From assembly GCA_012295275.1 (NCBI GenBank), contig CM022672.1, forward strand, positions 29,016,001 through 29,080,000: a DNA stretch of 64,000 bases, given 5' to 3'. Made by a program: the position numbers and the translations under genes. The notes under the pieces were generated by a model, which saw only the letters and a program-made list of their open reading frames with translations, ran no database searches and had not been told where the DNA came from. Shown here one piece after another: positions 5 to 30,002 of the stretch (positions are counted from its first letter, which is position 1; the number at the start of each line of letters is the position of its first letter). The DNA is from Chrysomallon squamiferum. Taxonomy: Eukaryota > Animalia > Mollusca.

Positions 5-334
5 TGTTCCAAACCAAATTTATCCATTTCTGTCCACCATCCTTTTATAGATGAGCAGAGTGACATGTCACACCAGGACAGACAGAGGATTTTCAAATGC
101 AAAAAGTGTGGCTACCTCACACACTATAAGAGTTCTCTTAACAGACACCAAAGACTTCACACAGGAGAGTTTTTCTGGTGTCATATCTGTTCTTGCCATT
201 TCAATGACCATTGTCAGCTAAGATATCATTTAAGTGGACATGCAGGTGATCTCAAGTGTTCTGTCTGTGCTAAGCATTTCACCAGCTTTGCTGGATTAAA
301 GCAGCACGAAAAAGGACATTTAAAGCAACTTTAG
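5..334 (+). CDS. Alternative terminal exon ZF-1, three C2H2 zinc fingers
   Basis: CKKC..HQRLH, CHIC..HLSGH, CSVC..HEKGH, then a stop. The frame is open back to the window start; TCAG at 1-4 gives a phase-0 acceptor (CSKPNLSISV...). The polypyrimidine tract would lie outside the window, so the start is uncertain. Confidence 0.8.
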   Translation, partial: CSKPNLSISVHHPFIDEQSDMSHQDRQRIFKCKKCGYLTHYKSSLNRHQRLHTGEFFWCHICSCHFNDHCQLRYHLSGHAGDLKCSVCAKHFTSFAGLKQHEKGHLKQL

Positions 335-1017
335 AAAAAGAACATTTAAAGCACCTTTTGTTTTTTTTTTTTAAAAAGAAGAAGAAAGAAATGACATGGT
401 TTTTAAATAATTTCATAATAATATTTTACAGAAATATTAAATTTTTGTTTGTTATTCAAAAACCATTTTAAGATAAAAAAAATAGTTTGAAAGAATCAGT
501 GTTTGGTTTTAATTTTATCTAAACCAATACTGAATATAACAGAGATGCCATCAAATACAGTTTGGGCATAGACTGTGTGTTTACCCCTACATTACACCAT
601 TATAAGATACTAATAAATAATTACACTGTTAGTCCAAATCCTCAGCCAAATACTTGTAATGCTATAGTGGATAAGAGCTTATAGTATTTCTGCATGTATT
701 GAAATTGGCAAAGAAAATTTCTTCTGAAGTGGACTTTTACTCAGCTTGACCTAATGTTAGAATTCTGAATCTGCTGCAGCACAGAGCATTAAAAAATAGC
801 TTGTTCAGTCAGCCATTTCAATGTTGCATCAGAAATTATGTTCATTTTAATGTTTATATTCACTAAATGTCTTGGTTGAATTCGCCTTTTTAAGCCAGTC
901 TTTCAATTTGACCTAGATCATTTTTACAGTCAATAAATGACATTGCATTTTTGCTGTTTGAGTTGAACTGTGAAATTTTGACAAGATCTGCAGGTTGTTT
1001 AAGCAGTCTCTGTTGTG

Positions 1018-1054
<37 letters not shown>

Positions 1055-1738
1055 GGCATCTGTATAATGTCTGTATTATCATCACATTGACTGATTTATA
1101 GTATACTGATACACTTTGAAAAATTTTGATTGCAGTTATTAATTTTTGTGAGACTCAGCTGAATAATTTTACTTGAAAAAAGATTAACATATTCAATATT
1201 ATCTGAGATGACAGAATGCTGATATTTAAGAATTCATAATTTTATTCAATCCGATCTTGTCTGAAATCATTACATTGTTCCTTAGGTATATAATATAATA
1301 ATATTATTGTTCTTGGATGGTTTGTATTTGGATGCAGTATTTAGTTGCTGGTGCATTGATATCAAAGGAAAAAATTGTGATATAAATGAAAGTATTCCTT
1401 GCATTACACCATAAAACATCAATTAGAAGTTTTTTTCTCTCTTTTCATGTGATCAGTTTGTCCCAAAGTTTCTGCAGTTTTAAAATAATGTGATCATTTT
1501 ATCTTTTGGTAAATTATTGAATTTTCTTGCTTTATTCTTTTTTCTATCTTTGTGTGTGTGTGTGTGTTATGTATTTTACAAATGAAAAAAACAAATATAT
1601 AAATAAATAATTAATTAAAAATAAATAAAATAGAACAATAACTAAACAGCAGTTTCACATAATTATTTGTATAAAGAATGTTTTGCATTACTTTCCCCTC
1701 TAATAAAATGTTAACCCTTGTCTTTGTGTGTTTTGTAG

Positions 1739-2107
1739 ACATATCAAATCAAATACAGTGATTCACTTATGCAAAATTTGGCCAGATGTTCAGATGCTCG
1801 TGGATTTGTCTCTGAGGAACAGGATTTTGGAGTTGTTATTTCCCAGACAAAAGATGGGAAATTTTATAAATGCAGTAAATGTGACTATATGTCACGTTAC
1901 AGACACTGTATAAAGAGACATCAGCAGGTGCACACGGGAAATTTCTTCTTTTGTCACATCTGTGCATGTCACTTTAGTGACAAGAATCAGCTGCAGTATC
2001 ATCTTGACGGGCATGCTGGCAATCTGAAATGTTCTGTTTGTGAAAAAGTATTCACCAGTTTTGCAGGACTGAAAAGACATAAAAAAGGTCATGTTGAAAA
2101 TGTGTAG
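1739..2107 (+). CDS. Alternative terminal exon ZF-2, three C2H2 zinc fingers
   Basis: Acceptor tgtgttttgtag ends at 1738; phase-0 frame TYQIKYSDSLMQN...; three fingers with HTGNFFFC and HAGNLKC linkers; TAG stop. Confidence 0.88.
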   Translation, partial: TYQIKYSDSLMQNLARCSDARGFVSEEQDFGVVISQTKDGKFYKCSKCDYMSRYRHCIKRHQQVHTGNFFFCHICACHFSDKNQLQYHLDGHAGNLKCSVCEKVFTSFAGLKRHKKGHVENV

Positions 2108-3000
2108 ACATTATAAGAACTGACATACTGTAATTTCATTTAACACTGGATCCAATCCATATTTATTTGTTCTTCTCTGTGATTATATTAGGAAAATGGC
2201 TTCCATATCAAACAGTGTTCTAAATTATTGGGTTGGAACAAAACTTCATAGCATTTTTAAGGTGAATGTCAGTATTTAGATATAAGCACACAGATGTAAT
2301 CACATATGTACCTTTACACTCGCCTTTCAGAATATGTTTATATATTTCAAATATTTCAGTCACGTGTAAAACAGAATCATGTGCCACCTACTGAAGAAAT
2401 GCTACAAAGGTTTGTTTTCAGCCCAGCATTATCTTCCATTCACAAGTGTACATTGATAACATCAAGAAAATATATTGTTAGTCATCAGAGTTGTTTTAAT
2501 AATTTTTAATTTTAGTTATTTATAGTTATTTAAAAAAAAAAAATTCTTAACATTATTGTAATAGTAAGGTTTAGGTATGGCTATAATCCTGATGAAATGT
2601 GAAATTCCATAAATTCTTAGTAAAAATAAATATTTTAATATCATTAACGAGTTATCTTTGTTATGCCTGAAACAAATGTGTGGAGTGAATCAGATTAGAA
2701 ATCTTTTTTACTCTTAAAATAGTTAATATTAATAGTAATTATTTATGAATATGGAAAGAAGCAAATTTAGAACCATTCTTTAAAGCATAAACATGTAAAA
2801 AGGTACCTGAAATTAGTGTAGTGGGACACCACACCCACACATACACAATTGTACACACATACCTTCCTGACAATTCTTATATATTGCACACACACACACA
2901 CACAAAATACATTTTTCATTACTGAAACTATTTTGATGAAGGATACTGTGCAGTGTAAGAGAATTTAAAATCATCATAGAGTAATCCATTCTCTTTTTAG

Positions 3001-3417
3001 AGTTCTACTGGCAAAACCATGCGACATCCAAGGTTCAGATTAACGTCTGCTTCAGGTGATGAAATAAACCAATCAGTCAGATTACAAGGTGACCAGTATG
3101 TTAGTTCTAAAGAAGATGAACAAATGAACACAAATCAAGGATCAGTTCAGAAACTTGCCAAGTTCAAGTGTTGTCACTGTAATTTCCAGACTGCATATCG
3201 CTTTGCTTTGGAAAGACACCAGAAGAAACACACAGGAGATTTCCTGTTCTGTCATCTGTGTCCATGCAGGTTCTATGACAAATATCAGCTTTCATATCAC
3301 CTGAAAGGACATGCAGGAGAGTTGAAATGTCGTTACTGTTCTAGAGACTTCTCTTCAGTACTTGGACTCAAACATCACGAGCTGATATGTCACAGAACTG
3401 AAAAATTACCTTTATAG
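3001..3417 (+). CDS. Alternative terminal exon ZF-3, three C2H2 zinc fingers
   Basis: Acceptor ctctttttag ends at 3000; phase 0 (SSTGKTMRHP...); three fingers paralogous to the neighbouring exons. Confidence 0.88.
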   Translation, partial: SSTGKTMRHPRFRLTSASGDEINQSVRLQGDQYVSSKEDEQMNTNQGSVQKLAKFKCCHCNFQTAYRFALERHQKKHTGDFLFCHLCPCRFYDKYQLSYHLKGHAGELKCRYCSRDFSSVLGLKHHELICHRTEKLPL

Positions 3418-4244
3418 TTTGCTTCTCTAATAATTATTAGCTGTCACTAGTTAATATTGTTTGACTTACTTTTTTTCTTTTTAGGGGCATAGAACTATTG
3501 GAAATATTTTTGATAATATTTTTGTATGCCACTGGTATTACCATTTACACAGACAATTCCATCAAATGGAATATCCTGAACTTTTAAAAGCTCCTTCAGA
3601 TGTAAAAAAGAATGTAAATATTTTGGACACAATAAACAGAAATGCAGCTTAATTTGTTTGTTTTAATTACATGAAGCTAACAATTATAATAATAAAACGC
3701 TATATTCTATCACTTTAAAAAAAAAAAGTAAAACAAAAAAGATAATAAAAAGGATATCTAAAAAGATTTTTAAATGTTTAGTTTTACAGAATTAAATTGT
3801 TGAGTAATGAAAAAGTACAAGTTGATACAATTAATAACAGCCAAATAACACAATTAAAAACTGCTTATCACACCTTTTTTTTAAAATTTGTATAATTACT
3901 GAAGGTCTGGAACTATTCATTTTATTAAAACAAAATTATATATATAAATAATTTATTCATATGATTCTACAGCCTTTTTTCCTTTTAATTTAATTAATTT
4001 TACTTACTTATTTACTTAGTTACTTACTTAATTTATTACTATTAGTTTTTATATTCTTTTTTTATTCTTTTTATTTTTGGTTTGGCTGTACCATTTTATT
4101 AATTTCTGTATACAAACTAATCTTTCAATTGTATTGAGATTTTTTCCTTTGACATCAGTGCATGCACCTGCAACTAAAATACAAACTGCATTCATATACA
4201 AACCATCCAAGAACAATAACTGTATTGTACACCAGTCTGTGTTT

Positions 4245-4795
4245 GTAAACCACTGAAAGGAAAATTACATAAAATACAACATCCTACTGTGCATGGCTTT
4301 TGTCAGCTGTAAGAAGACTTGACTCAGTTCAAACTCAGATAGCAATAACCTTACTTCAAAAATAGCTGATAGAAAATCTGAAAATCTTTACAAAACTTTG
4401 ATGACATTTCTCCTGCAAAAAGAAAACAAAATCCAAATAGAAAGAAGAGTATGACAAGGGGACACCATATCACCCAAGCTGTTTAAAGGAATGCTTGAGA
4501 ACTGTTTTCTAGGAAACCAGAGCTTGAAGATAGTTGGAGATTCACTTTCCTTTTGCTGATGATATACTCCTGTGTGTAAATAAATACACCAAGTGAAGAA
4601 ATGCTGCTGGAGTCAGCTGATGAAAGTACAGTCCTAGGACTGAAAATGAACACATCAACAACAATGGAGAATGATATTCCAATAGATGTCGACAACATGC
4701 TAGAAACACTGAAAGTGACTCCTGTCTGGGACAGAGAGCTGGGACAGAGACACCAGTGACAAAAACCAAGACAAAGAGACTCAAAGACATACTGA
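4245..4795 (+). mobile_element. Degenerate non-LTR retrotransposon (LINE, RTE-like) reverse transcriptase fragment
   Basis: Disrupted RT motifs are readable: NILLCMAFV..DFDSVQ, RRV*QGDTISPKLF (about 4443-4484), FADDILLC (about 4552), LGLKMNTS, DKNQDKETQR. Stops and frameshifts throughout. Confidence 0.8.
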
Positions 4796-6179
4796 AATCT
4801 CACATTTAACATTTTTATTAATTAATTCCAATAATTTAATTCATACATTTTTGTGTCTTTCTGTGGTTGTTTCCTAGTCAGCAAAACTATACAGTACATT
4901 GTGTAACTAAAGCTGAGGTCAGAATGTGGTACAAAATGGTTTTTAGTCAAATTTCCCACTGGTGTCAAACTGAGTGGCACTTGTCAATCAAACAAGAGAC
5001 CTTTGAATCCATTTTTTTTTTCTTTTCTTTTCTTTTCTTTCCTGTCATTTATTCATTTATTTATTTTAAGAACTTGAATATCAGTATCCTATTGTTCAGA
5101 TAGGGGTTATGTTAGCCTAGATTTAACATATTTACAACACTGTTTTCCAAACATTCATCTAATTTGTTTTATAATAATGAGTTATAAATGATTGTATAGG
5201 ATTGAATCTTCTTGGCAAACCCACTGGATACTTTTTGTTTTATCCAGTAACTAGTCTGTTGAAGACTGTGGTATGTTGTGTTCCTGTCCATAAGAAAGAC
5301 ATCTTTCTGAAAGCACATGTAAAACACACCCAACAGAGAATTCCCTTATGATCCGTAATTTATGACTATGTATAATAAGTGAAAAGGGTAATGGAGCTTT
5401 TTATACAGCACAGGTTAAATTTTGATTGGAAATTTATTTAACACAGGACATTCAGTGATGATAACAACAGTAATTACCAAAGCAGTGAGACAGTGTGATA
5501 CCATGAAGACCTCAGATTAAATATATATTTGTATGTATGTTTTTCTTGTCTAACTTGAACTCAGTGTATATGTGTGTGTATTTGTTTTAAAATCAGTCGT
5601 GAAGATTTAGTGTATTTTCTCAGGTGGTGTTTCTGTATGTAGTAAATTTGTAAATAATCATCAAAGAAGATGAAGATAAAGCTGATGCTGTTAGGGAAGA
5701 AAACTTACGTTGGCAAACAAGAATTGACAAATCATGCACCAAATATATAATTTTGGCATGTCTTTTCACTTGCATAATAGCAAGCATACCAGCCAGTGTC
5801 CATAACAGGTAGATGTAAAACTGAAACTGAACATCTAAAGTTTTTATTTCAAGCGTTCTTACAATAATATAAATACAAACATTTCTTCACTAAATTTCCA
5901 CTGTGTCAGTGTTTTTTTAGATTTTTTTTTCTCTATCTCTGATAACCTCAGTAACCATACATACTGTATCATAGAATAAAATTATGCTTTTGGGTGGTTT
6001 GGTTTTCTTAGCATATTTTAAAAAATCGATTATGTTCTCATTGTCATTTGTCACTGGATGTATATTATCACTGTCGTTTGAAACAGTCATGAAATATAAA
6101 ATGACATAATTTTCTAATTTCAACAGCATATAAATCATTTTTTTCACTTATGGCAGTCACCTGTGATTTTATTTTCTAG

Positions 6180-6536
6180 AGACTTGGTGGTCGTAGTGTT
6201 GGAATCTCGGGTTTGGCATGCAGAGTTGGTGGTGGTAAGCAGACAAACAAAGTGAACCTTAAAACAACCCAACACAAAGCGAAGTACCAGTGTAACAGAT
6301 GTGATTTTCAAACACTATACCGGTTTGCATTAACCAGACACCAGAGAATTCACACAGGAGACTTTTTCAGATGTCATCTTTGTACTTGTCACTTTTCTGA
6401 TGGCTATCAGCTGCAGCATCATTTAAAGGGACATGCGGGAAATCTCAGATGTAAAATCTGTGGACGAAATTTTACTAATTTCAGTACTTTAAAATATCAC
6501 GAGAAACGACACATTGAAAATCTAACGACACACTGA
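6180..6536 (+). CDS. Alternative terminal exon ZF-4, three C2H2 zinc fingers
   Basis: Acceptor ttttattttctag ends at 6179; phase 0 (RLGGRSVGISGLAC...); fingers CNRC, CHLC, CKIC. Confidence 0.88.
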   Translation, partial: RLGGRSVGISGLACRVGGGKQTNKVNLKTTQHKAKYQCNRCDFQTLYRFALTRHQRIHTGDFFRCHLCTCHFSDGYQLQHHLKGHAGNLRCKICGRNFTNFSTLKYHEKRHIENLTTH

Positions 6537-7996
6537 AAATCTCGCATCAGATAGAAACATCTGTTGACTTTTGTGTTCTTTTTTTTTGACATCACAGCAT
6601 AGATGAAACCTGTGTCAGGTTTTATTTATATCAAAAATGCTTTGATGCCTTTTTAATTTTTCATGTGACCTATTGGATTAATAAATACGTTATTACTTGT
6701 TGTTTCAAGAATCATGGTTGATCATTACATATTTTTAGATAAATAAAAAAAAATTATTTTGTTTGAAGCTATTATTTCAGGTGGAATGATATCTGGATAT
6801 TTTTATTGAATCTGATTTAGTGTTGTTGGTTTGTTTTTTAAAAATATAAAAAATAAAATAAAATATAAAAATAACATCAACACAGTTAGAAATTGTTTTT
6901 ATACTAGTATCTGTTTCTCTACAATTATTGACATTATTAAAAAAAATTTAAAGATTTCTTTTTGGTTTAGTTTCTTTTGCCAATAGCTGTTAATAACATT
7001 TTTTTAAATTTTTTTTTATGAAGTCCTATTTATATGGACAAAAGTTGTTGTTTTGTTTGGTCTGTGATTCCTGAGAGAGAAGAAAAGTTGTTTGAAGTCC
7101 TAATTCACCACCTTAAACTTCAACTAAATAACCAGTCCTCAGCTAATTTCCTGCTTTCTCTAAATTACCACAATCTCACAGATACCACAGTAGTTGATAT
7201 CTAAGTTAGTCATAGTCTAGTCTAAATTCTGAACATTTTCAGCTTAAATACTACTCATGTTATTCTTATTAATAATAAAAGAAAATGTTTACTTGTCCTC
7301 CTTTTCACTGAGACTCTGAGTTGTGTTTATGAGTTTACTTTTCTTTGTTAATGGGTATATGTTTAAAAATCAATTGTAACCATGATTACAAAATTCTCGT
7401 AGAATGGAATGAAAATTTATAAAATTTGGGTGTTTTTCATATGAATATACCCATTTCAAAACACTACTAATGGTTATGTATATTTTTAAAAACAGAATCT
7501 GAAATTGAAATTCACCAGCAACATGCATAAAAAGTTAAAAATATTAATTTCTTCATCTAACTTCATTCCACATGGGAGATCTGCTAAGGAAATGTTGTAT
7601 CTGATATTTCAATTCATTCTTCTTGTTATTAAATTGTTAATTTTATCTGGTTTGAAAGTTATGTTTGTTATTCCACTGATACTTATTGACTCCTTCCATT
7701 TACTTTGATGTACACAGTGAGCTCTGATGTTGATTTGAAACTTGTTTTTGTTTTATATTTATACATCCTATTGTAGGTTATCACACTTGTAATCCAGTTC
7801 AGATTTTCCATTTATGACTTCATGAATTTATCTTTTCTTATATCAAAAAAAAAAAAAAAAAAAAAAAGAAAGGAAAATAATCTTTACTATATTATTTTTA
7901 TTTATTTATTTATTTACTTCATTGTCATTTGATGCCATGGCCTGTAAAAGAGCTGCTGGATTGTTTACTGTAGTCTGTTGTTACTTTACTTTTTAG

Positions 7997-8320
7997 ACTC
8001 AAAGACGGACATTTTCCATACACAGACCAGCTCATGCAGGAAATGATCATCCAAGATCTGCAGCCTCCAATGCAAAAATCTATTGTTGTGACCAGTGTAA
8101 CTATCACACAATTTACAGTCACGTTCTCAGGCGTCACCAGAGAGTTCACACTGGAGATCTCTTTAGATGTAACATTTGTACTCGACATTTCTTAGGAAGA
8201 TATGAACTTCGTCAGCATCTGAAAGGTCATGCTGGTAACCTTAGGTGTCGCGTGTGTGGAAAAAATTTCATGGCCATCAATACATTACAGCAGCATACGA
8301 AAATGCACCATGTTAATTAA
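7997..8320 (+). CDS. Alternative terminal exon ZF-5, three C2H2 zinc fingers (absent from the ORF track)
   Basis: Acceptor tttactttttag ends at 7996; phase 0; manual translation TQRRTFSIHRPAHAGNDHPRSAASNAKIYCCDQCNYHTIYSHVLRRHQRVHTGDLFRCNICTRHFLGRYELRQHLKGHAGNLRCRVCGKNFMAINTLQQHTKMHHVN*. Confidence 0.88.
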   Translation, partial: TQRRTFSIHRPAHAGNDHPRSAASNAKIYCCDQCNYHTIYSHVLRRHQRVHTGDLFRCNICTRHFLGRYELRQHLKGHAGNLRCRVCGKNFMAINTLQQHTKMHHVN

Positions 8321-9659
8321 TACATGATTACGTTTTTTCTGAAATTCACATGAAATGGAGGGGAAAATAATGATGAAAGTCTTTTTATATTTTATTGTGT
8401 TAATATTAGTTTAATATATAAATTAGTGTTCATCATCAAGGAGGAAGTTAAAATAGAAAACTGAATAAGATTTAACATCCATAGATTATTTAAATGGTCA
8501 TTGCATATTGATAAAAAATATGAATAAAGATTTGTGAGAAAAGGTTTTCTCAAAAACTGATGTTTTTTAAAATGTATTTGTCAGTAAATACCTCATCATG
8601 TTGAGAAAAATCATATTACAGCTGCTAGATCCATGTGTTTTCATTTATGTGAATACTTTTATTTAGACGTACCTAACATTGCTCAGGAATAACATGTATG
8701 TATTTTGTAACATGGTAGAAATTCAAATCTTCTTTTACTGAGTCAGAGACACATTAGTGATTACAGACATTTCAAGTTAGAGAAACTGAAGATAATGCAA
8801 CAGGGCTAAAAGAAGAAGAAAAAAATTGGTTTTCTTTCTCACTGAATGGGACAAAATGATCACTAATGTGGGGAAAAAGCACACCCTTACAAACTAATAA
8901 GGAATAGAAAATAATAAATATCTGATTTTACTGGATTTCACTAAACTAGGCTTGATGATAATAAATTTAAAATTACAAAGATTTCACTTTTTGATTTTTT
9001 GTTTTTAAGAATTAAAATGTATAATGTTACTGAAGTTTTATCCTGTATGAAGTTTGTGTAAATCCAAGTGAGAATATTTCACAGTGTTGCAAAATTTCAC
9101 CTCTCACTGTGATTAGGTATAGGCAACTATTGCTTATCTGAAAATACTGGCACAGAACATAACATTTATACCTGTAAAACTGTAGTATAATGTATTTCTG
9201 TAAATATGATTTAATATTTTGTATATGTATAAATGTGTGTTTGAATACATATCATGCTAATAGTTTTTTCCAAATTCCATCAGATTCGTATAATATGCAA
9301 GTAATTTATAAGAGTACTATTTCGTATTTGGCTGTATTGAAGTTCATTGAATAAACAAAATAACTTACTGTTTCTCAAGATTTTGGTTTTTCTCTCTCTC
9401 ACACACACATGCACGCACACACACAGAGAGAAAACATGCAGTTGTGTGGTTTTTATTTTTATTAATTAATCAAAGACACAAGATTGTATAACTATATTAA
9501 TTTACTTTATAAACAGGATCTGGTTGGATTAATTAAAATTAAATTATTTAACAAAATCAAACACAGACACACACACAATATCTTGTAATTAAATTTCTAA
9601 TTATAAAAATAAGCTTTAAAAACTCAGAAATTTTAAATTCAAGTGATTTTCTTTTGCAG

Positions 9660-9980
9660 ACAGTAATAACAAAATGCAATGATCAACCTAACTCGCATGC
9701 AACAAAAGTCCCATACAAGTGTAAGTTTTGTCCATACCAGAGCAATTACTCACACGGACTGAAACGCCATCAAAGAATCCATACTGGAAACTTCCTCCAA
9801 TGTCATCTTTGTCCCAGCCACTTTTCTGAAATCTATGAGTTGACCCTTCACTTGAAAGGTCATTCTGGAGATCTTGTGTGTACAGTGTGTGGAAAGAAGT
9901 ATACTTCTAAGAAAGGTTTGGACAACCATGTGAAAAACTACCACAATAATAAAAAAAAGCTGAAGTGTGCAAAAGTGTGA
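9660..9980 (+). CDS. Alternative terminal exon ZF-6, three C2H2 zinc fingers
   Basis: Acceptor ttttcttttgcag ends at 9659; phase 0 (TVITKCNDQP...); three fingers. Confidence 0.88.
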   Translation, partial: TVITKCNDQPNSHATKVPYKCKFCPYQSNYSHGLKRHQRIHTGNFLQCHLCPSHFSEIYELTLHLKGHSGDLVCTVCGKKYTSKKGLDNHVKNYHNNKKKLKCAKV

Positions 9981-11597
9981 AATACATATTTTTTATTTTG
10001 AGAAAGGTTGTGGGTTGTGAGGTTTTCTCTGATAACATTTCGTTTCAAGTTATCGATCTTTTTGAAAAAGATTTTTAAATATTTCATGTTATGCTGAGAA
10101 AAGATAATAAAAAAAATATTATTTCTTTGAAATTGTTGTCCTTGTGATTTTAATATTGCCACACACTCACATAAACATACATTCAACCATATATTCATTA
10201 TCAGAAACTAAAGCTTTATCATAACAAATTCTAACACAAGACATAACTGCAACACACTGCCATGCAGACAAGTACTTGTACACTTATCTGAAGACTTCTT
10301 TGTGCTTACATGCAGCTAGCTGGCCTACAGATTGACCTCCTGTAAGAAAATGAACTAACATAATTATAACTCAGTTTCTTTTAATATAATCAGTTCTTTA
10401 TTTATCTTAATTATTTGTTTTCACGGATTAATGTTATATCTTTACATCCATGTATTACTACTGTCAACAAGCAAATAATTCAGTTTATCCAGTCATTAGG
10501 CAAGGTTAGACTAACATCAGTAGATACTGCTACATCTCAGTTTCCCAGCCACCAGTCTGTTGAATATTGTAGAGAAACCCTCAAACAGTTCTGCATATTC
10601 TCAGGTTTAACTGCTTAATGCTTTTAAAAATCATGCAAGAGCAATGGATTCACACACAAAATATTGTTGTTGTTTAATTTTCCCTATTAAAATTTCAGTC
10701 AGCAGTAGTTTGTGCTTTATTTTTCAGTGCACATTAATTAAAAATGTTCCAAGGGTTTCAAGAAGCATAATGTCATCAGTCTCATGATCAGATGTACTTT
10801 TGTGATTTTTGACATTATCCTGTACCTTTGTTCAGTTCTCTTTTGCTGCCATCTACTACTTATTCAGTCTTGCCATAGGAGAGATTACTATTTTTTTTTT
10901 GGAACTGCATATATATAACAATGCTGTGAAAGTTTAAAATATTCTTAATAATTAAATTTAATTTCACAAATATATACATTACACACCTGTGTTTTCTGGT
11001 TTCCTTTTATCTACAGGATATTCCATTTTAAGGTATATGGTTTTATGGAAATATTTAGAATGATACAAATATTTGCAATATATAACAAGAGAAATTTTTC
11101 TTTTTTTCCATATAATTTTGTTTTCTGAAATCTAACAGTTTGGTTAAATACTTTATAACTGGGGTGGTTAAGAAGAATATTTATTAAATTATATTAGTAC
11201 GTTCATATAAAGAAACATGTAAATCTCCTTGTGGTCAGTTTGTATAAATATCTAACACTGAAGAGTCAGTCTTTTCACTCATTATGTTTTTATGATCTAA
11301 ACAAGTAATTTTATTTCACTATTGAATCCAAAAATGATGAATGCTTTTATCAGTCAAAAACTGCAGCCTAATACATGCATCCTGACTTGATCATAAACTT
11401 ACAGAATATTTATTCAAGCTCTTTTTTCCTGAAAATATTCTAGGATATGCATATTTAACGTCTTCATAAATCTATTAGTTTAATTCAGACATAGTATTTT
11501 CAGTTTACAAAATTCTCCAATGCATTTTTGAACTGTTCATATTAAAATGACGACTGAAACAGACATATCTATTTTGAGCACTTTTGTTTTGTTGTAG

Positions 11598-11891
11598 AGT
11601 GAGTATTCTTGTGGAAATAAACAAATAAATGAAGGTCTGCTGGCTTGTAAACAATGTAGCTACAAGACAAAATATGCTAACTGCTTGAAACGTCATCAGC
11701 GGATTCACACCGGAGACTTCCTCAGGTGTCCTCTCTGTCCCAGTCACTTCTCTGCCAGCTATGAGTTGTCTCTTCACATGAGTGGACACGTTGGGATGTT
11801 AACTTGTATTGTCTGTGGGAAAAATTACACTTCAAAGAGAGGCCTTGACCTGCATATGAAATCCCACAAAGGATCTGAAACAACACACTGA
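11598..11891 (+). CDS. Alternative terminal exon ZF-7, three C2H2 zinc fingers
   Basis: Acceptor ttttgttttgttgtag ends at 11597; phase 0; SEYSCGNKQINEGLLACKQCSYKTKYANCLKRHQRIHTGDFLRC... extends the listed ORF to include finger 1. Confidence 0.88.
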   Translation, partial: SEYSCGNKQINEGLLACKQCSYKTKYANCLKRHQRIHTGDFLRCPLCPSHFSASYELSLHMSGHVGMLTCIVCGKNYTSKRGLDLHMKSHKGSETTH

Positions 11892-12089
11892 TGTTAGTAC
11901 AATGAATAAATCTGTCACGTTAATCAAAAATAAACCTTTTTAATATTTAAAATTGAATTACTTCTGTTAATTTTGTTTCATATTATATATTATACAAATT
12001 ATTATTGCATTATTTCTTGTAGAAGGGATACACTAAGGTTATAATCTCATTTGTGTCTGGCTTTGGTTGGTGGCAACACTTCATTTCAG

Positions 12090-12180
12090 AGTTTTTCTTT
12101 ATGGTCATCAGATGTAACTTCAAGACTGATTCTAGTGCTGTCAGTGAGATAACAGAATTCACACAGGAAATCACCTCAGA
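12090..12180 (+). pseudogene. Decayed relic of a zinc-finger exon
   Basis: After the acceptor-like tcatttcag, fragments RCNFKT (12110) and RIHTGNHLR (about 12154-12180) lie in different frames and match finger 1 and the linker of the intact exons. Confidence 0.5.
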
Positions 12181-12387
12181 GAGAAAAGGAGGCCACTACA
12201 AATAAAATCATACTTATTTATATTTATAAATATAAAAAAAAAAAAAAAAAAAAAAATAAAAAAAAAAGTCGAAAATAATATAAAAGTATTTACATATTAA
12301 ATGAAAAAAAATAAAAAAAATCGTAATTAATTGCTTTTTGTTTTCTAGTATTTGGATATGTACTGTATTTTTTGGATGTTTTTTCAG

Positions 12388-12672
12388 CTGAGGAGATGTC
12401 AGAAAGGTGTAAAGATGTTTTATAGCTGTGATCAGTGTTCCTACAAGACAGTAAGGGGAGATCATCTCATTCGACACAAGAGGAAACACAGTGGAGATTT
12501 CTTCCGATGTCACCTCTGTTCTAACCACTTCTTTGACAACTACCAGCTGGCACTTCACATCAAGGGACACGAAGGAAGACTGGCTTGCAGGACTTGTGGT
12601 AAACAGTTTCAGTCTCATTCAGGACTGTATCTTCATGAGAAAAAACACAAGATGTACTTGCTAACCCAGTAA
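12388..12672 (+). CDS. Alternative terminal exon ZF-8, three C2H2 zinc fingers
   Basis: Acceptor gttttttcag ends at 12387; phase 0 (LRRCQKGVKMFYSCDQC...); last exon of the array. Confidence 0.88.
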   Translation: MRRCQKGVKMFYSCDQCSYKTVRGDHLIRHKRKHSGDFFRCHLCSNHFFDNYQLALHIKGHEGRLACRTCGKQFQSHSGLYLHEKKHKMYLLTQ

Positions 12673-16912: not shown

Positions 16913-17055
16913 TCACTGGTGTTTATTGAACTTTGACCTGTAGATCTGTGACAAAGCTTTCTTTTTAACTCGACATTCAGCAGACGTTATCTTACTCCTT
17001 ATAGCTTTCTTGATGGAGGAAATTTCTGAGTCGGGAAATGCACACACAGTGAACT
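16913..17055 (-). CDS. BEN-domain C-terminal alternative last exon d
   Basis: Acceptor cttctttcttccag, phase 1; EFTVCAFPDSEISSIKKAIRSKITSAECRVKKKALSQIYRSKFNKHQ*. Confidence 0.82.
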
Positions 17056-17124: not shown

Positions 17125-17252
17125 TCACGGATTGTCTGAATACAAAGATCCCTTTCTTCGTCTGGCACGACTCTCAGCACAGGAAATCTTATTCCTAAAA
17201 GACTTCTTTAGAAGCACCACATCGGTATTAGGGAAGTTTTGTTTAGTGAAGT
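17125..17252 (-). CDS. BEN-domain C-terminal alternative last exon c
   Basis: Acceptor ctgttttttttgcag, phase 1; DFTKQNFPNTDVVLLKKSFRNKISCAESRARRRKGSLYSDNP*. Confidence 0.82.
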
Positions 17253-17454: not shown

Positions 17455-17585
17455 TCAAGGATCCAGTTTAAAACACGGCAGTGACAGTTTCCGCTTAGCA
17501 CGAGTCTCCGCACAAGTGATTTTCTTTCGGATTGACTGCTTTATGACAGCCAGTTTGGCACCAGGAAAAGTGGCTGTGACGAAAT
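17455..17585 (-). CDS. BEN-domain C-terminal alternative last exon b
   Basis: Acceptor ttttctcttgcag, phase 1; DFVTATFPGAKLAVIKQSIRKKITCAETRAKRKLSLPCFKLDP*. Confidence 0.82.
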
Positions 17586-19298: not shown

Positions 19299-19429
19299 TT
19301 AAGAAGAATTTCTGGAGATTGCCAATATTGCTTTTTTCTTCATCCGACTTTCCGCTGCTGTTATTTTGTTTCTTATAGCACGCTTTAAAATCACTGAATC
19401 AGCTTCAGGAAAAGATTGAACTGTAAATT
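19299..19429 (-). CDS. BEN-domain C-terminal alternative last exon a
   Basis: Acceptor tatttcttacag, phase 1; EFTVQSFPEADSVILKRAIRNKITAAESRMKKKAILAISRNSS*. Confidence 0.82.
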
Positions 19430-19521
19430 CTGTAAGAAATATAGAGTCAGTGAAACAGGAGATGAGATGACCAGCTGAAAATTAAATTCTTTAACACGGT
19501 TTTTAATATCAAACTATTCTG

Positions 19522-21113
19522 CAAAACAAGTTCTGTATTACAGCTGATTTATAAACACAGTCATAAAACAAGTTCAGTATTACAGCTGATTTATATATAC
19601 AGCCATAAAACAAGTTCAGTATTACAGCTGATTTATAAACACAGTCATAAAACAAGTTCAGTATTACAGCTGATTTATAAACACAGTCATAAAACAAGTT
19701 CTGTATTACAGCTGATTTATAAACACAGTCATAAAACAAGTTCAGTATTACAGCTGATTTATATATACAGCCATAAAACAAGTTCAGTATTACAGCTGAT
19801 TTATATATAGTCATAAAACAAGTTCAGTATTACAGCTGATTTATAGATACAGGCATAAAACAAGTTCAGTATTACAGCTGATTTATAGATACAGTCATAA
19901 AACAAGTTCAGTATTACAGCTGATTTATAGATATAGTCATAAAACAAGTTCAGTATTACAGCTGATTTATATATAGTCATAAAACAAGTTCAGTATTACA
20001 GCTGATTTATATATAGTCATAAAACAAGTTCAGTATTACAGCTGGTTTATATATAGTCATAAAACAAGTTCAGTATTACAGCTGATTTATAGATACAGGC
20101 ATAAAACAAGTTCAGTATTACAGCTGATTTATATATACAGCCATAAAACAAGTTCAGTATTACAGCTGGTTTATAGATACAGGCATAAAACAAGTTCAGT
20201 ATTACAGCTGATTTATAGATACAGGCATAAAACAAGTTCAGTATTACAGCTGATTTATAGATACAGGCATAAAACAAGTTCAGTATTACAGCTGATTTAT
20301 ATATACAGCCATAAAACAAATTCAGTATTACAGCTGGTTTATAGATACAGGCATAAAACAAATTCAGTATTACAGCTGATTTATAGATACAGGCATAAAA
20401 CAAATTCAGTATTACAGCTGATTTATATATAGTCATAAAACAAGTTCAGTATTACAGCTGATTTATAGATATAGTCATAAAACAAATTCAGTATTACAGC
20501 TGATTTATAGATACAGGCATAAAACAAGCTCAGTATTACAGCTGATTTATATATAGTCATAAAACAAGTTCAGTATTACAGCTAATTTATATATAGTCAT
20601 AAAACAAGTTCAGTATTACAGCTGATTTATAGATACAGGCATAAAACAAGTTCTGTATTACAGCTGATTTATAGATTATAGTCACAAAACAAGTTCAGTA
20701 TTACAGCTGATTTATAGATATAGTCATAAAACACATCCTGTATTACAGCTGATTTATAGATACAGGCATAAAACAAGTTCTGTATTACAGCTGATTTATA
20801 GATACAGTCACAAAACAAGTTCAGTATTACAGCTGATTTATAGATATAGTCATAAAACACATCCTGTATTACAGCTGATTTATAGATACAGGCATAAAAC
20901 AAGTTCTGTATTACAGCTGATTTATAGATTATAGTCATAAAACACACCCTGTATTACAGCTGATTTATAGATACAGGCATAAAACAAGTTCTGTATTACA
21001 GCTGATTTATAGATTATAGTCATAAAACACATCCTGTATTACAGCTGATTTATAGATACAGGCATAAAACAAGTTCTGTATTACAGCTGATTTATAGACA
21101 AGTCTTAAAACAC
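19522..21113. repeat. Intronic minisatellite, unit about 40-43 bp, roughly 38 copies
   Basis: Tandem unit cataaaacaagttcagtattacagctgatttatagatacagg with no unique spacers; alternating variants at the right end. Confidence 0.97.
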
Positions 21114-21461
21114 ATTTAATAAGAAAGAAAAAAGAAAGAAAAAGAAAATAAAATCTGCTGATGACAGTAACAATGTAAAGAAATAACTAGAACAACTTCC
21201 TTTTGGTATAGACAGGTTATATCAGGAGAGCAATGTGACATAAAACACATATTCTACTAGCAAAGAGCACAGGAAAATTTCACTTCCAGTGAATTGTTGT
21301 ATGTTATATATCTACAAATAAGTTGTAATTCTGGACATTTTTTATGACTATATCTATAAATCAGCTGCTTTATGATTTTTGAAGAAGTTTATGTTGGTTT
21401 TACATGATATGTCCTATCAGTAATGCATATACCTTAAAGACTTAATATTTTCTAAACTTAC

Positions 21462-21660
21462 CTAAAATACTATTAATTATTTGTGGATCAAGCAGTTTTT
21501 TGTTGTTGACACCAGTGAGGTTGGAACCCAGGAGCTCGTTGGTGGTGTAGAAACAGTTGAGGAGATAGTTAGCACAAGCTGTTGGAGACAGTTTGTTTCG
21601 GGCTCGCGTAATCTGTAGAGGATAAACGTACACCCCTCGACACTGTGACAGCTCCATCAT
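21462..21660 (-). CDS. BEN-domain N-terminal exon (variable region of the minus-strand gene)
   Basis: Acceptor cttttttctag (phase 0) and donor G|gtaagt (phase 1). SPTACANYLLNCFYTTNELLGSNLTGVNNKKLLDPQIINSIL matches the BEN pattern (LL..F...EL..SN..G...K..LDP..I..I). Confidence 0.85.
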
Positions 21661-23206
21661 CTAGAAAAAAGTTTTCTATTTAGACCATTGAAGTTATTTA
21701 TCATTCTTTCTGTACAGTTAAACTTTATAAACATAATTTGAAGTAACGTTAAACAACATAATTAGACGCTACCTCCCACACACACTTATAAAAGATGAAG
21801 TAGTAAATGTATCACTTTAGTTTATTTTCATCTTTTTATTTATTATTATTATTTTATTATTTTTGTTTTTTTTTAACTTTCATGACTAAAGGATTGAGAA
21901 CAACAAAATTAATTTTACAATTTATGTAAAATATTAACTGTAAATTCAGTTGAGAAGCACTTTTATTTATATTTTATTAAAAATTAATACTACAGTTAAC
22001 AAGAAAAAAGAAAAGAAACCCATACAAAAAAAAAATAATAATAATATTACTCCTAGCTGATAAAGCTATATATTCAAACTGTTAGGTATCTATGACAACT
22101 AATATGTAGTTAATGCAAAGACAAAACAAGCTAGGACAGAAAACAAAGGTTTTTGTTTTTAATTTGACAACTGAAAATAACTAATATCATTAAAAAAAAC
22201 ACACACACAACCGCTCCCCTTCAGTTTTACAATTAAAAATTCTGAACATAAACAGGATATGTAATTAATGGAGTTATTAATTTATTGTTTTTAAACAGAT
22301 CTGCTTTGAAATTATAAATAAAAAATGTTTCTTGAATTGTTTTCCAACACTGGTCAAAATATCACTGTATTCATCAGTGAAACTTAATTTTTGCCCATGA
22401 AATATGACAAAAGAAAAAAAATTATGTGTAATGCTTTTCTTAAATTCAGTGTAATACACAGATATGAAACAGTAGGAAATTTAGTTCTCAAGTCTAGCTT
22501 TTTACATAAATCTGTGAAAAAACTGATCAAATATTTAAAACACTTGATGATCAAATACTCAGATACAGCTTAAAAAAAACTTAGCTTTTTATCTTGCTAA
22601 CTTTGCCAAATGACTGGTAGTGAAATGAAAATTGTACCAATGTAATCAATGAATACTGATAAATTTCTTAAATAGAAGTCAGCTGTCATTTTAAGCAATT
22701 ACCAGTCAACTAACAAGATGTAGTCAAAAAAAGAAATATTTTAAGTTTATTAACAATAAAGTTTTTATCATCATTTCTCAATTTCCAGTTCTGCAAGGTT
22801 ACTTTGCTAATATGACTTAGATTCATTTTATCTAACAAACAGTCTAAATATAATCTGCAAGTTTTGTTGTTAGTTTGCCATCCATTCTTATTTAATAAAG
22901 CAAGGTTAAAATTAGAGTACACCTAATAAATATCTAATTTTTCTGTAATGGTGATGTCACAGCATGCAGAGTAGATTACTTTGCTCAAATATTCTTTTCT
23001 AATGTCAGAAACAGTTATCAGTCTACAATACATGAAGTGAGTTATCAGTACATGCAGTTTACAATATGTGTTACTGGATAAAATGGCAATGTTCAAATCA
23101 TTTATTGTCATTCTTTGTCAAGTGTCTTGATGAAGAAAACAAACACAAAAACACTTCAATGTATAAGAATTTTATTAGATCATTTATTTATATTTTACAT
23201 TAAGAA

Positions 23207-23935
23207 TCAGTGCTGAATTAGATTATTTTTGTGGTATATCTCCATACACTGAGAAGGACAAAGACCAGGTTTATGATGGCAGACAGCACACTGAAAACGT
23301 GTGTCCCGTCTTTTGCCTAATGAATAACACACTCGACATCTCTTTCTAGCCCCTCTGTACTGTTTGGCAGTTGCTGGTACCAGTTCCAAATAATGCAGCT
23401 CTGGTTCTAACCCTTGCCTCAACACTGAATATGTAACATGTTCAGACGCGGGATGTGTCTGTTCCATGTTCTGATGTGTGTTCTTATTTATGTCTGTTGT
23501 TTCATCAGGCCCATTTGTAACATAGTCACAACTAATAGGTGTGTGTACTTGATTAAGAATTTTTGGAAGTATTTTAAAATAAGATGTTTCATCACTGCCA
23601 TTCTGTTTTAGATTTTTGTCAGTTCTGGATGCAGATTTTGACAGCTCTAAAACATTTTGTGTTGCTGAACAGTCTGCATCTGCATCTGTGGTAACATTAG
23701 CACTGACAGACACCTGCACATTGCTCTCCAATCTTTTCAGTCCTGCACACACATCTGAGGTAGACCTTGAAGATTCAGTCTTTAATCTACTTTTCACTTG
23801 TCTAGAAAATTTGACTGACTTATGGTGATTTGCAAGTTCTCTAAATTTCCTTGTGTTTCCATTTTCTTTTTGTGTTCTCTTCTTGAAACATTCAATCTGC
23901 CTTTTTTCTGACTTTATCTGTGATGAATTTTCTGT
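23207..23935 (-). CDS. Alternative terminal exon with piggyBac-type C-terminal cysteine-rich zinc ribbon
   Basis: Acceptor gattctattttcag, phase 0, open for 242 aa; ends LHYLELVPATAKQYRGARKRCRVCYSLGKRRDTRFQCAVCHHKPGLCPSQCMEIYH, typical of piggyBac/PGBD4 transposase C-termini. No DDD catalytic core is present. Confidence 0.82.
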   Translation of the reverse strand, partial: TENSSQIKSEKRQIECFKKRTQKENGNTRKFRELANHHKSVKFSRQVKSRLKTESSRSTSDVCAGLKRLESNVQVSVSANVTTDADADCSATQNVLELSKSASRTDKNLKQNGSDETSYFKILPKILNQVHTPISCDYVTNGPDETTDINKNTHQNMEQTHPASEHVTYSVLRQGLEPELHYLELVPATAKQYRGARKRCRVCYSLGKRRDTRFQCAVCHHKPGLCPSQCMEIYHKNNLIQH

Positions 23936-26508: not shown

Positions 26509-26579
26509 ATTGTATTTAGCAGCAACTTCTGGAGACAGCTTTCCAGGTCTTGGAGCACATGGATTGTTGTTAAATGACC
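26509..26579 (-). CDS. Shared coding exon 3 (last constant exon) of the multi-isoform gene
   Basis: Acceptor (t)n-aaag, phase 1 in; GSFNNNPCAPRPGKLSPEVAAKYN; donor AAT|gtgagt, phase 0 out. Confidence 0.8.
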
Positions 26580-28198
26580 CTTTAAAAAAAAAAAAAAAAT
26601 CAATTTTTAATTACAAAGCATAAATATAAACAAATAAAAATTTATGTCTGTAAATAAATAAATAAAACTTATTTCTGCTTACACTTAATATCAAAAAATA
26701 CTTCTTTTTTTTCTTTTTTTTAAGTGAGTAATATATGCTGTAAAAATAAAGAGCAAGCAGCAAATTATTTTGCATCTACTCAATGTTACTTTTGGCTAAA
26801 CTTCATTCACAGATTATAGTTTTTATTCAAATTTTGAATATTCCAATGGAAATACGGTGGAGTTATTTCTAAATCTGTCAGCCATTTAACATATAACTGT
26901 CAGAATAAAAAATAATGTTTTTGGTTTTTTTGTTTGATTTCAGCTGAATGATATTAATGATTCTTGGATGATGATATTGCCCTTCATCAATAAGGATGAT
27001 GGTTTCTCAAATGATCTACTGCTGATGACAAAAATTACAACCTGTTTTAAGTGGCAAACAGTTCTGGAATCACTGTGTCAGTTTAACTGATGTGTGTGAG
27101 CAGGCTGACTCTGATTTTGATAAAAATTGTTTATTTTGGTCTGAAGCACTTGACTATCATATTTTACCTTCATCAGACAAACTTTTTTTTAATAAACTCC
27201 TTTCAGAATGCGTATTGCCACCAGTCTTTATATTTTAACAAAATGGGCAAATGTTCATAATGTTACTGTTTCTACAAGGATGTATTCTACAAGGAATTCA
27301 AGTCTGCAGTTACGTTTACAATGTTAAGTTATTTTGAAAGTAAATATATCTGTAACTACATCCACATTATGTTTAAAACATATTCTTATTCTTTCTATAT
27401 GGTTACCAGATAACTGAAGATCATGAAATCCATATGGTTTTAATCAAGGTAATACAAAAATTGTATTATGATATAGGGAAGAAAAATATTATATATATAT
27501 AAAAACAAAAATAAATAAATAAATATAAATGATTATGATATTCAATAAATATAAAGATTTATTACTCTTCACAGTTATTATTTAACCTTTTTGCTAGTGA
27601 CCTGTTATAGATAGAAAACAAAATATAACAAAATAAGTACATTTTATTTACAATTCCTGTTAATCTTTCTTTTCTGGCAATCTCTTGTAATAAACAACTG
27701 TCATAAAACAATTTCCATACTCTAATGAAGAGACACTTTGTAATGTATGAATGTTATTTGGAAATAGATAAGAATCTTTTCTGCAGCCCACTGTTGAATC
27801 AAGAGTGAAATAGTCTTTTGTATCAAGTCTGACTGTTTTCAGAGACAAAGCAATCATAATCAGTGAATGCACTAAACAATTTGTACTACAAATATCCCCC
27901 CCCCCAAAAAATTATTAACAAAAATAAATAAATAAAAAATAAATATAGCAATTAACAATACAAAAAATATCAGAAAGAAAAAAATATTATATGGACTATT
28001 TCTAATGCATTAAAAGAAACAAGTACATAATTAGTACAAAAACTGAAAAAGGAAAAAAAAGAAAGAAGAAAAAACAAGCATTATTCAATTTTATAATAAC
28101 TTGAGTAATCTGTCAAGAAATGCATGTAAAAAATACATTATGTATAATTAAAACAAACAAAAACACTCTCTTTAATACAATCATTATAATTCTCTTAC

Positions 28199-28465
28199 CT
28201 GTAGTTAAACCAGTTGTAGGAATGTGCAGGTTTGCATTCTGAGGTGAAGATATCAGCATGCTACAATCATTGTCAGATGTAGATGCTTGGTCAATTGCAC
28301 GTTTTGGAAAGTTCTGTGGAAAAACTGGACCACCATACCCAGTGACACCAGTATTAGTGTGCAGCACCAGAGGATATGGTGCATGTTGTGGCATGTCTTG
28401 ATTACCTTGTAGATTTTCTTCATCAGTACCAGAATCCATCTTACATTCATCTTCTCCAGAAAAAG
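28199..28465 (-). CDS. Shared coding exon 2 of the multi-isoform gene
   Basis: Acceptor tatatttttag, donor ACAG|gtaaga, phase 1 to phase 1; SFSGEDECKMDSGTDEEN...HIPTTGLTT. Confidence 0.85.
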
Positions 28466-29014
28466 CTAAAAATATAAACTGTTCTCGATCAAATTTCTTT
28501 TACATTTTTTCTCAGAGAAACATTTATGTAATACTGTTAGGATTAATAATACTTAATAATAACTGACTTAATACTAATGGATAGTTTAACTGAATATGTC
28601 CACTGAATCAGAAATCAGTTCTTTTTATAAAAATATAGTTCTTGATATGCATATTATAGAAGATGACTAACAATGTAATAGATTACATTAAATTAAGTAA
28701 TATTCTATCAGTTTCTGGAAAATAACTTTGTAAATAAATAAACTCAAAAAAAAAAAAAAAAAAAAAAAAAAATTATCTACAATTAAAAACAGACACAGTA
28801 CTGGCTCATTGGTCTAAAAGTGAAAGTTCATAACCTATTAAAAAATAATAACTAACAATTCATTTAAAATTCTGAAAAGCCCAAATGATACATCATTGAT
28901 AACCGATACAGTGACCAAAAATCTAAAAGAAAGTATTGTATATATAATAAAATTTAAAAAAAGCAAAATTAAATGAAACTGTCTAAATGTAAAATATTAA
29001 TAATGTTAACATAC

Positions 29015-30002
29015 ATGATGAATCTTGTGGATCTACAGTGTTAGACGTATTCCAGCATTTCTGATCATGATACACTACTCTCTGTTCGTGGTCTTGCAAA
29101 GAACAAAATGAAGCAGCATCGTCTGATTCTTTCTTCACACGAGACAAATCCACACTGAATTCCTTGCCAACTGCAGGTACCTGACTGACACTGTGTTCTT
29201 TTAAAAATCTTTTCCTTGATTCATTAGTCACTGTTTTGGAAAGCTGTCCAAGATTCTGATGAAGTCTTGCACTGGAAACTCTCATCATCCTGTCGTCAAA
29301 TGAAGAATTATTAGAAAAACTCTCTGAGACAGGTTTCCTTGTTTTCTCACTGTTAGCTGACTGATTTAAGTTTTCATTTTCATTTCTACAAAAACTGCCA
29401 GAATTCAAAGCTCTTTCAATATTACTGCTAATCCTTTGAGCAGCTTTTGGAGAAAATGATGGTCCTGAATGTGAAGTTATGTCTCTGGCCAAGAATTCAC
29501 TGTTTTCCACAGAAGGACCAGATGGGTAATCATCATTCTGTCTACTGAGTTCACTAATTTGATTTCTTTTCCTATGGGAAATATTTTCACTATGTGTTGA
29601 TGAAAATGTTAACTCACCATCATGTACAGCATTTAAATTCTCTCTGTCCAGTACAGATTGTACAACTGTGTCACTCTGCTCATTGAATGGAACATAATCA
29701 ACAGACTTTTTATTACTGTGAAATTTTGATTCTGTTTCTGATATGTCTTGCTGTTTGGGAACTACTTTTTTGGAAGGAGAGGATGCATAATAACTGTTAC
29801 TTACGAAAATGGTGGAGCCTTCTGTGCCACTTTTACACACCTGTTCTTGCACTATGTAATTGTACTTTTTAATCTTGTCAACATTCAAATATAGATGGCC
29901 AATGATTTCAACACTCTGTCCAAATTCTACATAACCGTGACATAATGCCTGCAGAGATTCAACCACAGAATTCACAAAATGAGCTGCCGTTTCATCATTC
30001 AT
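29015..30002 (-). CDS. Shared coding exon 1: unnamed compact N-terminal domain plus Ser-rich low-complexity linker
   Basis: Longest ORF in the window; acceptor ttcttttaaacag 22 nt before the ATG (exon starts at 30024); donor T|gtatgt, phase 1. The first ~73 aa look globular (alpha/beta); the rest is polar and probably disordered. Confidence 0.88.

Follow-up and report, generated by a model that had tools for sequence, protein, structure and literature searches.

In Chrysomallon squamiferum, a gene on the minus strand joins a constant 442-residue front part to an exon encoding the first half of a BEN domain. On balance we favour the reading that three more BEN endings and a zinc-ribbon ending are likely available to the same gene in cis, and that an array of zinc-finger exons on the opposite strand likely belongs to a convergent gene, probably a paralog. 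The window, the whole stretch of DNA analysed, is 64,000 nt long (assembly GCA_012295275.1, CM022672.1, positions 29,016,001-29,080,000, forward strand). Within it, the constant part of the gene is laid out as follows:

32428..32689, minus strand, 5′ non-coding exon
29015..30024, minus strand, constant exon with the ATG at 30002, 988 coding nt and a phase-1 donor (RNA joints and sequence)
29778..30002, minus strand, unnamed N-terminal domain of ~75 aa (310 homologues, predicted model)
29127..29150, minus strand, conserved linker motif DLSRVKKE, a hydrophobic-acidic stretch plus psi-K-x-E
28199..28465, minus strand, constant exon of 267 nt, phase 1 at both ends (RNA joints and sequence)
26509..26579, minus strand, last constant exon of 71 nt, from phase 1 to phase 0, with its donor at 26509

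A preliminary description of this DNA had proposed three shared minus-strand exons of 442 codons that end at a phase-0 donor at 26509, and the recomputed coordinates and phases agree (988 + 267 + 71 nt = 1326 nt). The 5′ UTR exon, 32689-32428, was absent from its exon list. RNA contigs assembled from one study contain the joints 32428 to 30024, 29015 to 28465 and 26509 to 21660 in all four runs, and the last constant exon is 80% identical, across 20 aa, to that of the Gigantopelta ortholog.

No Pfam family was matched at E<=0.1 by constant exons 1 and 2, nor by the N-terminal domain itself, and BTB is absent from the 25 families listed, of 30 in all, in a Pfam scan of 95 family members. The predicted model of the domain has a helix (residues 3-23) followed by three strands (30-41, 45-57 and 64-68; pLDDT 85.6), whereas the BTB core is described as multi-helix (PMC11426971). 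The domain as modelled is thus not a BTB, and the BTB/POZ domain of TTK-group genes such as lola and mod(mdg4) was not found in the constant part, bearing out the earlier statement that the locus does without one. A Foldseek search with the model returned no match at E<=0.001. The best VIA-align match was a type II secretion pseudopilin (Z 5.9, rmsd 3.1, 72 residues), a likeness that was set aside, the arrangement being common; the best 50 VIA-align rows hold no BTB chain, which excludes nothing. A PDB sequence match to Scone-R was discounted as no stretch passed, and a two-copy complex prediction made without an alignment (scores 0.15 and 0.07, mark 0.32) gives no evidence either way. The strict linker motif is present in 55 of 112 family N-termini and in none of the shuffles, and psi-K-x-E in 107 of the 112 against a shuffle mean of 18; the latter, at 29127..29150, may be a SUMO-type site. 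By analogy with BTB, the constant domain would act as an oligomerisation or cofactor hub, and such a hub combined with a SUMO-type site might, with about equal weight for and against, point to chromatin repressors or architectural proteins.

The exon that follows donor 26509 in the RNA, and the endings that could follow it, are:

21462..21660, minus strand, BEN first-half exon, 66 aa, phase 0 with a phase-1 donor, joined to 26509 in 4/4 RNA runs
19523..21112, tandem repeat within an intron, 38 copies of 42 bp
19299..19429, minus strand, BEN ending a, 79% identical to Gigantopelta protein P0002, whose annotated ending is its ortholog
17455..17585, minus strand, candidate BEN ending b (sequence comparison)
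17125..17252, minus strand, candidate BEN ending c (sequence comparison)
16913..17055, minus strand, candidate BEN ending d (sequence comparison)

A phase-0 BEN exon at 21660 with four alternative endings had been proposed, and the phases are confirmed, with phase-1 acceptors at 19429, 17585, 17252 and 17055. The domain assignment is close to threshold: the exon alone matches Pfam BEN weakly (E 0.037), and over the complete domain, taken from the ortholog in Gigantopelta, the match to PF10523 has E 1.5e-4 and 22.3 bits, just below the cut-off of 23.2. P0002 has the same constant-plus-BEN join, and 21462..21660 is 97% identical to it. The best PDB sequence match of the domain is BEND6 (E 0.036), to whose C-terminal part the endings align. 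To BEN-domain factors (BEND6, Insensitive/Bsg25A) the sequence match is weak but consistent across the whole domain; unlike in these proteins, an intron splits the snail domain before the last helices and there are four candidate interchangeable second halves. All four endings keep 10 invariant columns, with b to d 38-50% identical to ending a. Helix alpha5 of Bsg25A binds the major groove (PMC4281564), and the four endings would exchange C-terminal helices, including the major-groove helix, retuning specificity inside one domain. Use of more than one BEN ending is quite probable. The locus had been described as joining unrelated modules in cis; of the five isoforms counted in cis, however, four would be variants of a single BEN domain.

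23207..23935, minus strand, candidate alternative last exon with a piggyBac-type zinc ribbon at its C-terminal end (sequence and Pfam)

The earlier identification of this phase-0 exon, with its own stop, holds in acceptor (TTTTCAG), phase and Pfam match (zf-Tnp_2, PF13842, E 4e-7, 30.9 bits against a gathering score of 24). The exon encodes 242 aa, and RNA covers it in 4/4 runs. This cover is not counted as support because pieces of intron are covered at similar depth. The one listed joint skips the exon, and the main contig runs unbroken into BEN in all four runs. No second partner of donor 26509 is among the joints listed for these runs, and no loose end at 26509 is among the 24 listed (145 more exist, and contigs drop rare forms); the RNA comparison covered a stretch that stops short of the BEN endings and the plus-strand exons. 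The proposal that 26509 joins several modules is thus upheld for the BEN exon, in 4/4 runs, but no second partner is listed. The main contig ends 1, 28, 13 and 30 letters beyond the BEN donor in the four runs; an end 1 letter past the donor is consistent with a fork into several endings, each of which starts with A, although contig ends prove nothing.

Since the BEN join alone is listed in RNA, the locus might make a single product, constant part plus BEN ending a, with the zinc-ribbon exon a transposon remnant or separate transcript and endings b to d unused duplicates. The Gigantopelta aegis RefSeq entries for the locus fit this: three accessions give one identical constant-plus-BEN protein in a one-member cluster, and therefore no alternative ending of similar length is annotated there. 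We regard a single product as distinctly improbable, however, as the zinc-ribbon exon stays open for 242 codons from an in-phase acceptor within DNA of 30% GC, and no other long open frame able to hold a transposase is present between it and exon 26579. Five family proteins carry the same terminal module as their tail (39-54% identity), and endings b to d are themselves open and in phase, with the invariant columns kept at the identities given above. With intact frames and matching phases, the zinc-ribbon exon and the four BEN endings are likely used, the zinc-ribbon exon probably as a minor alternative. Of the isoform numbers first proposed, at least five in cis and up to 13, one is present in the RNA, five are likely and thirteen is unsupported.

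Searches with the N-terminal domain define a gastropod gene family of 310 matches, with named members in Patella, Haliotis, Gigantopelta, Littorina, Pomacea, Babylonia, Nucella, Batillaria, Aplysia, Biomphalaria, Physella and Bradybaena, and several paralogs per genome in the gastropods sampled. No description of the family was found in open PMC and bioRxiv articles. In a quick tree of the domain (79 columns, many open forks), used solely for this grouping, the window sequence groups with Gigantopelta (99), and metagenome scans gave two contigs with other family members. Whether homologues of the N-terminal 75 aa also have variable last exons had been put forward as a check, and the answer is clear. 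Among 181 family proteins there are 23 groups that share at least 200 identical N-terminal aa, and 14 of the 23 contain a pair of unrelated tails. The tails found in relatives include C2H2, FLYWCH, HTH, piggyBac ribbon and homeodomain; within 33 group members scanned with Pfam (14 without any family), the pairs include homeodomain/zf-Tnp_2, C2H2/FLYWCH and HTH_Tnp_1/CENP-B_N. Patella LOC126815664 has a constant part of 471 aa; of its 14 isoforms, 13 end in double-finger tails that differ from one another (C2H2 in 6/6 scanned). Four Patella paralogs have near-consecutive accessions on a single contig. On these sequences a lola-like design without BTB holds for the family, the relatives' isoforms being database gene models, taken as annotated rather than from reads.

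Eight ORFs with triple C2H2 fingers, each with a 76-codon core, lie on the plus strand:

5..334, plus strand, triple-C2H2 last exon 1, acceptor and phase uncertain
1739..2107, plus strand, triple-C2H2 last exon 2, phase 0
3001..3417, plus strand, triple-C2H2 last exon 3, phase 0
6180..6536, plus strand, triple-C2H2 last exon 4, phase 0 (ortholog P0280, 67% over 112 aa)
7997..8320, plus strand, triple-C2H2 last exon 5, phase 0
9660..9980, plus strand, triple-C2H2 last exon 6, phase 0
11598..11891, plus strand, triple-C2H2 last exon 7, phase 0
12349..12672, plus strand, triple-C2H2 last exon 8, phase 0, acceptor 12349 or 12388

All eight had been described as phase 0. The eight exons are present, but a clear, pyrimidine-rich phase-0 acceptor precedes only seven; exon 1, at the window edge, has an AG at position 4 with no visible tract; of the acceptors that can be seen the best, at 51, is phase 1, with weaker phase-0 AGs at 56 and 59. 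Synonymous sites are saturated and pN is 0.20-0.40, and by this comparison the eight are old last exons under selection. Four of the eight have no Met ahead of the first finger, and the exons consequently need an upstream donor.

That donor could in principle be 26509. In mod(mdg4)-type trans-splicing, the eight finger exons would be transcribed from their own promoter and joined to 26509, giving up to 13 isoforms. In its furthest form, this reading would have molluscs arriving on their own at both parts of the mod(mdg4) system, a non-BTB constant hub with captured DNA-binding endings and intragenic trans-splicing, with 13 or more regulators made by one locus. Opposite-strand clusters are known at fly mod(mdg4) (PMC4528330; PMC13490949), seven of the eight finger acceptors match the phase of 26509 and half the exons have no start of their own. 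In a relative, moreover, the longest contig given is 668,156 bp both for the ortholog of finger exon 4 and for that of constant exon 1, a hint that their linkage is conserved. Such linkage is, however, equally explained by a paralog cluster, and phase 0 is not specific to 26509 but shared by the Patella paralogs, in which phase-0 finger arrays are present. With no loose end at 26509 among those listed and the contig unbroken into BEN, no evidence for trans-splicing or internal promoters was found in the RNA contigs, which cannot show transcript starts, nor was a TSA-like motif found in the last common intron. The best U1-pairing pseudo-donor in intron 26508-23936 scores 8/11, a value reached by 91.5% of 200 shuffles on a crude score; the test is weak because the motif is redundant in flies and largely dispensable in vivo (PMC13490949). 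Trans-splicing of the finger exons to 26509 is judged unlikely.

A convergent neighbour gene accounts for the plus-strand exons more simply. The arrays face each other tail to tail and do not interleave (12672 against 16913), and because paralogs cluster in Patella, a convergent neighbour to the left of the window is a likelier owner of the finger exons than the minus-strand gene. Against this assignment, no second family gene was found within the window, no second Gigantopelta paralog among the 21 species-named of 28 family clusters and no close match of the triple fingers to any family tail (best 39.8 bits). Metagenome scans gave no relative of finger exon 1. When full-length proteins carrying the triple fingers were sought, long poly-finger proteins crowded the results, and the top match, P0160, is unrelated; a short-length search gave three close relatives among 18 matches, all three stand-alone gene calls. 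The array might also be inverted in this assembly or haplotype alone and in truth continue the minus-strand gene in cis, since in Patella paralogs finger exons normally lie in a cis array and the phases here agree with 26509. The window has no break, gap or N, and we consider an inversion very improbable.

Drosophila tramtrack and fruitless are of the same constant-plus-variable-end kind as lola, and mod(mdg4) uses FLYWCH ends. In lola, at least 20 isoforms differ in their DNA-binding last exon, which mostly encodes zinc fingers (PMC4528330). As in lola, and also as in broad, the N-terminal part of the snail gene is constant and contains a small conserved domain, and the joint 26509 to 21660 attaches to it a DNA-binding last exon. 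Unlike in lola, the constant domain is not a BTB, the design extends through an entire family of paralogs and there are more kinds of tail. With mod(mdg4), which has a BEN isoform (PMC4281564) as the snail gene does, the likeness extends to a constant core with variable ends, to FLYWCH tails in snail relatives and to nearby finger exons on the opposite strand. It differs from mod(mdg4) in being without BTB and in that the RNA-supported join is collinear, with canonical GT-AG ends. The TTK-type BTB is reported as arthropod-specific (PMC11426971), and the layout of the snail family was likely invented independently of the fly genes. In the gene structure favoured here, the DNA-binding module would be set by which last exon, with its poly(A) site, is used, and new endings would arise when exons duplicate in tandem or when DNA-binding exons of transposases are captured in phase.

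The Chrysomallon locus, with one isoform shown, is a modest member of its family. Swapping the last BEN helices alone would be a finer tuning of specificity. A constant hub with variable last exons is regarded as typical of arthropod TTK-BTB genes; in the gastropods sampled it is built on an unnamed domain. This points to convergent evolution, in which new regulators were made from finger duplicates, from the DNA-binding parts of transposases and even from a homeobox exon. Known fly insulator proteins were not found in molluscs in one study (PMC4208683), and the family provides candidates for the chromatin-architectural proteins of these animals.

Recomputed from the window, an AT-rich stretch of animal DNA with no gaps, the sizes and phases of the three constant coding exons on the minus strand (30002-29015, 28465-28199 and 26579-26509; 988 + 267 + 71 nt = 442 codons; phases 1, 1 and 0) agree with the preliminary description, in which they end at a phase-0 donor at 26509. 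The zinc-ribbon exon and the BEN exon with four endings that it placed on the same strand were all found:

23207..23935, minus strand, acceptor 23935: zinc-ribbon exon, 242 aa, with a piggyBac-type zinc ribbon at its end (30.9 bits to Pfam zf-Tnp_2)
21462..21660, minus strand, acceptor 21660: BEN first half, 66 aa
19429, 17585, 17252 and 17055, minus strand, phase-1 acceptors: the four BEN second halves (endings a, b, c and d)

The second halves at 17585, 17252 and 17055 are 38-50% identical to the one at 19429, and 10 invariant columns are common to all. Most of the intron separating the BEN first half from ending a is a tandem array, 42 bp x 38 (19523-21112), that could affect the choice of ending.

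The gene is present in four RNA runs from one study, as contigs, which drop rare forms; these were compared over 21200-35400, a stretch outside which the BEN endings and the finger exons lie. The constant exons are spliced to the BEN exon: joints 32428->30024, which reveals a new 5' exon, 29015->28465 and 26509->21660 occur in all four runs with canonical ends. The join of exons 2 and 3 is unlisted as a joint, the contig coordinates leaving exactly 7 missing exon letters. Among the joints listed for these contigs, depleted of rare forms, there is no 26509->23935, and none of the 24 loose ends listed falls at 26509. For Gigantopelta, RefSeq holds one and the same protein, likewise made of constant part, BEN and ending a, under three accessions, in a cluster without other members. 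Based on the RNA joints and this single protein, the constant-plus-BEN isoform is likely the major one in the RNA samples examined. Of the at least five isoforms in cis expected previously, one is thus seen in RNA and the remaining four are likely. Within intron 0, at 31027-31445 (minus strand), contig pieces in two runs begin near an AG at 31449, and a loose end at 31050, common to three runs, does not match the window; this is possibly a repeat, or else an alternative exon at the 5' end or a terminal one. A short element at 34250-34430 with very high summed contig depth, and no terminal inverted repeat in the range tried, is probably a dispersed repeat. A short open stretch rich in Gly/Tyr at 45370-45590 (plus strand), with a dibasic motif at its end, could be one exon of a gene for a secreted structural protein or a peptide precursor.

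The first 80 residues encoded by the minus-strand gene match an uncharacterised Gigantopelta aegis protein at 84% identity and Patella proteins at 58-59%. As described previously, the constant part is without a BTB domain: the N-terminal domain has no Pfam match, and the AlphaFold2 model (95 sequences; pLDDT 85.6), one long helix with three strands, predicts a fold that is not BTB. By analogy with BTB, we infer that this domain may act as a hub. The linker is poorly conserved apart from a motif like DLSRVKKE, a putative SUMO-type site; the motif is present in 55 of 112 distinct family N-termini (0 in shuffles) and psi-K-x-E in 107 (shuffle mean 18), counts that are not independent as the sequences are related.

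A search with the N-terminal domain gave 310 representatives at E<=0.001, the best 150 of them listed; 21 of 28 clusters checked have a species name, all gastropod, and the taxonomic range may extend wider among weaker matches. Homologues do have variable last exons, as the preliminary description asked: among 181 family proteins, 23 groups have at least 200 identical N-terminal residues in common and 14 of these include an unrelated tail pair, the isoforms being database gene models. Pfam named the tails in 19 of 33 selected proteins (C2H2, FLYWCH, HTH_psq, CENP-B_N, HTH_Tnp_1, zf-Tnp_2, homeodomain), and a ribbon of the 23935 type terminates five family proteins (39-54% identity). Patella LOC126815664 has a 471-aa constant part with 14 isoforms, and isoform names running to X34 in Pomacea and X15 in Aplysia suggest larger sets there. 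In groups with unrelated tails, the first tail residue is G, A, V, D or E in 23 of 25, which fits phase-1 donors; two Patella finger-array genes agree with phase 0. Babylonia LOC143299761 and a partner sequence have 314 common residues followed by a homeodomain or a piggyBac ribbon. The homeodomain of its isoform X10 (P0142, B. areolata) is full (residues 320-376, Pfam E 1e-21) and annotated as one of the alternative tails; it resembles Antp-class Hox homeodomains, and either capture of a homeobox exon or a fusion made in annotation may explain it. Two other members, P0061 and P0035, have long tails that resemble Crypton/tyrosine-recombinase-derived domains, with no Pfam match at E<=0.05.

Eight triple-C2H2 exons are present on the plus strand (5..12672), as described, with a 76-codon core in all and a stop in each; the acceptor is clearly phase 0 in seven, that of exon 1 being ambiguous. 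Synonymous sites are near-saturated with pN 0.20-0.40 (28 pairs), a poly(A)-like hexamer lies within 700 nt of each, and four lack a Met ahead of the first finger; they are old last exons under selection that require an upstream donor. Between exons 3 and 4 there is a reverse-transcriptase-like fragment, presumably RTE-type, that is broken up by stops and frameshifts (4380-4800, plus strand). In a relative, the longest contig is given as 668,156 bp alike for the ortholog of finger exon 4 (67% over 112 aa), the ortholog of constant exon 1 and a further finger exon, which suggests that linkage of the array to the constant gene is conserved and that the array holds more than eight exons. Such linkage leaves open which gene the finger exons belong to. 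The arrays face each other tail to tail over ~4 kb with no interleaving, four Patella paralogs have near-consecutive accessions on one contig, and some paralogs have no tails other than fingers; a convergent neighbour gene is therefore the simplest owner. We lean slightly towards this neighbour being a family paralog; an unrelated neighbour is improbable. Two results speak against the neighbour reading: the 21 species-named clusters include no second Gigantopelta paralog, and none of the family tails closely resembles the triple fingers. Between the arrays (15568-16167) lies a 600-bp MITE-like element with 19-bp terminal inverted repeats. Trans-splicing could instead join the finger exons to donor 26509: all mod(mdg4) mRNAs are described as trans-spliced, from five clusters bearing promoters (PMC13490949), with a U1-binding motif helping (PMC4387717). 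In the intron that follows 26509, no site pairs with U1 better than expected by chance, a weak test. We consider such joining unlikely; the earlier figure of up to 13 isoforms is unsupported.

lola and mod(mdg4) are reported to combine a common BTB domain with variable ends, lola in at least 20 isoforms and mod(mdg4) in more than 30 (PMC4528330). The snail gene works in the manner of lola but is not a member of the BTB family; TTK-type BTB is reported in arthropods only (PMC11426971) and fly insulator proteins, CTCF excepted, were not found in molluscs (PMC4208683). The lola-like reading holds strongly at the family level; at this locus one isoform is observed and five are likely. No description of the family was found in the open PMC and bioRxiv literature. 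The terminal exon chosen would determine the DNA-binding module. As all four BEN endings can be aligned to BEND6 in its C-terminal part, and helix alpha5 of the Bsg25A BEN is described as sitting in the major groove (PMC4281564), switching endings would alter the recognition helix. New endings may originate both when exons are duplicated and when in-phase exons for the DNA-binding parts of transposases are captured.
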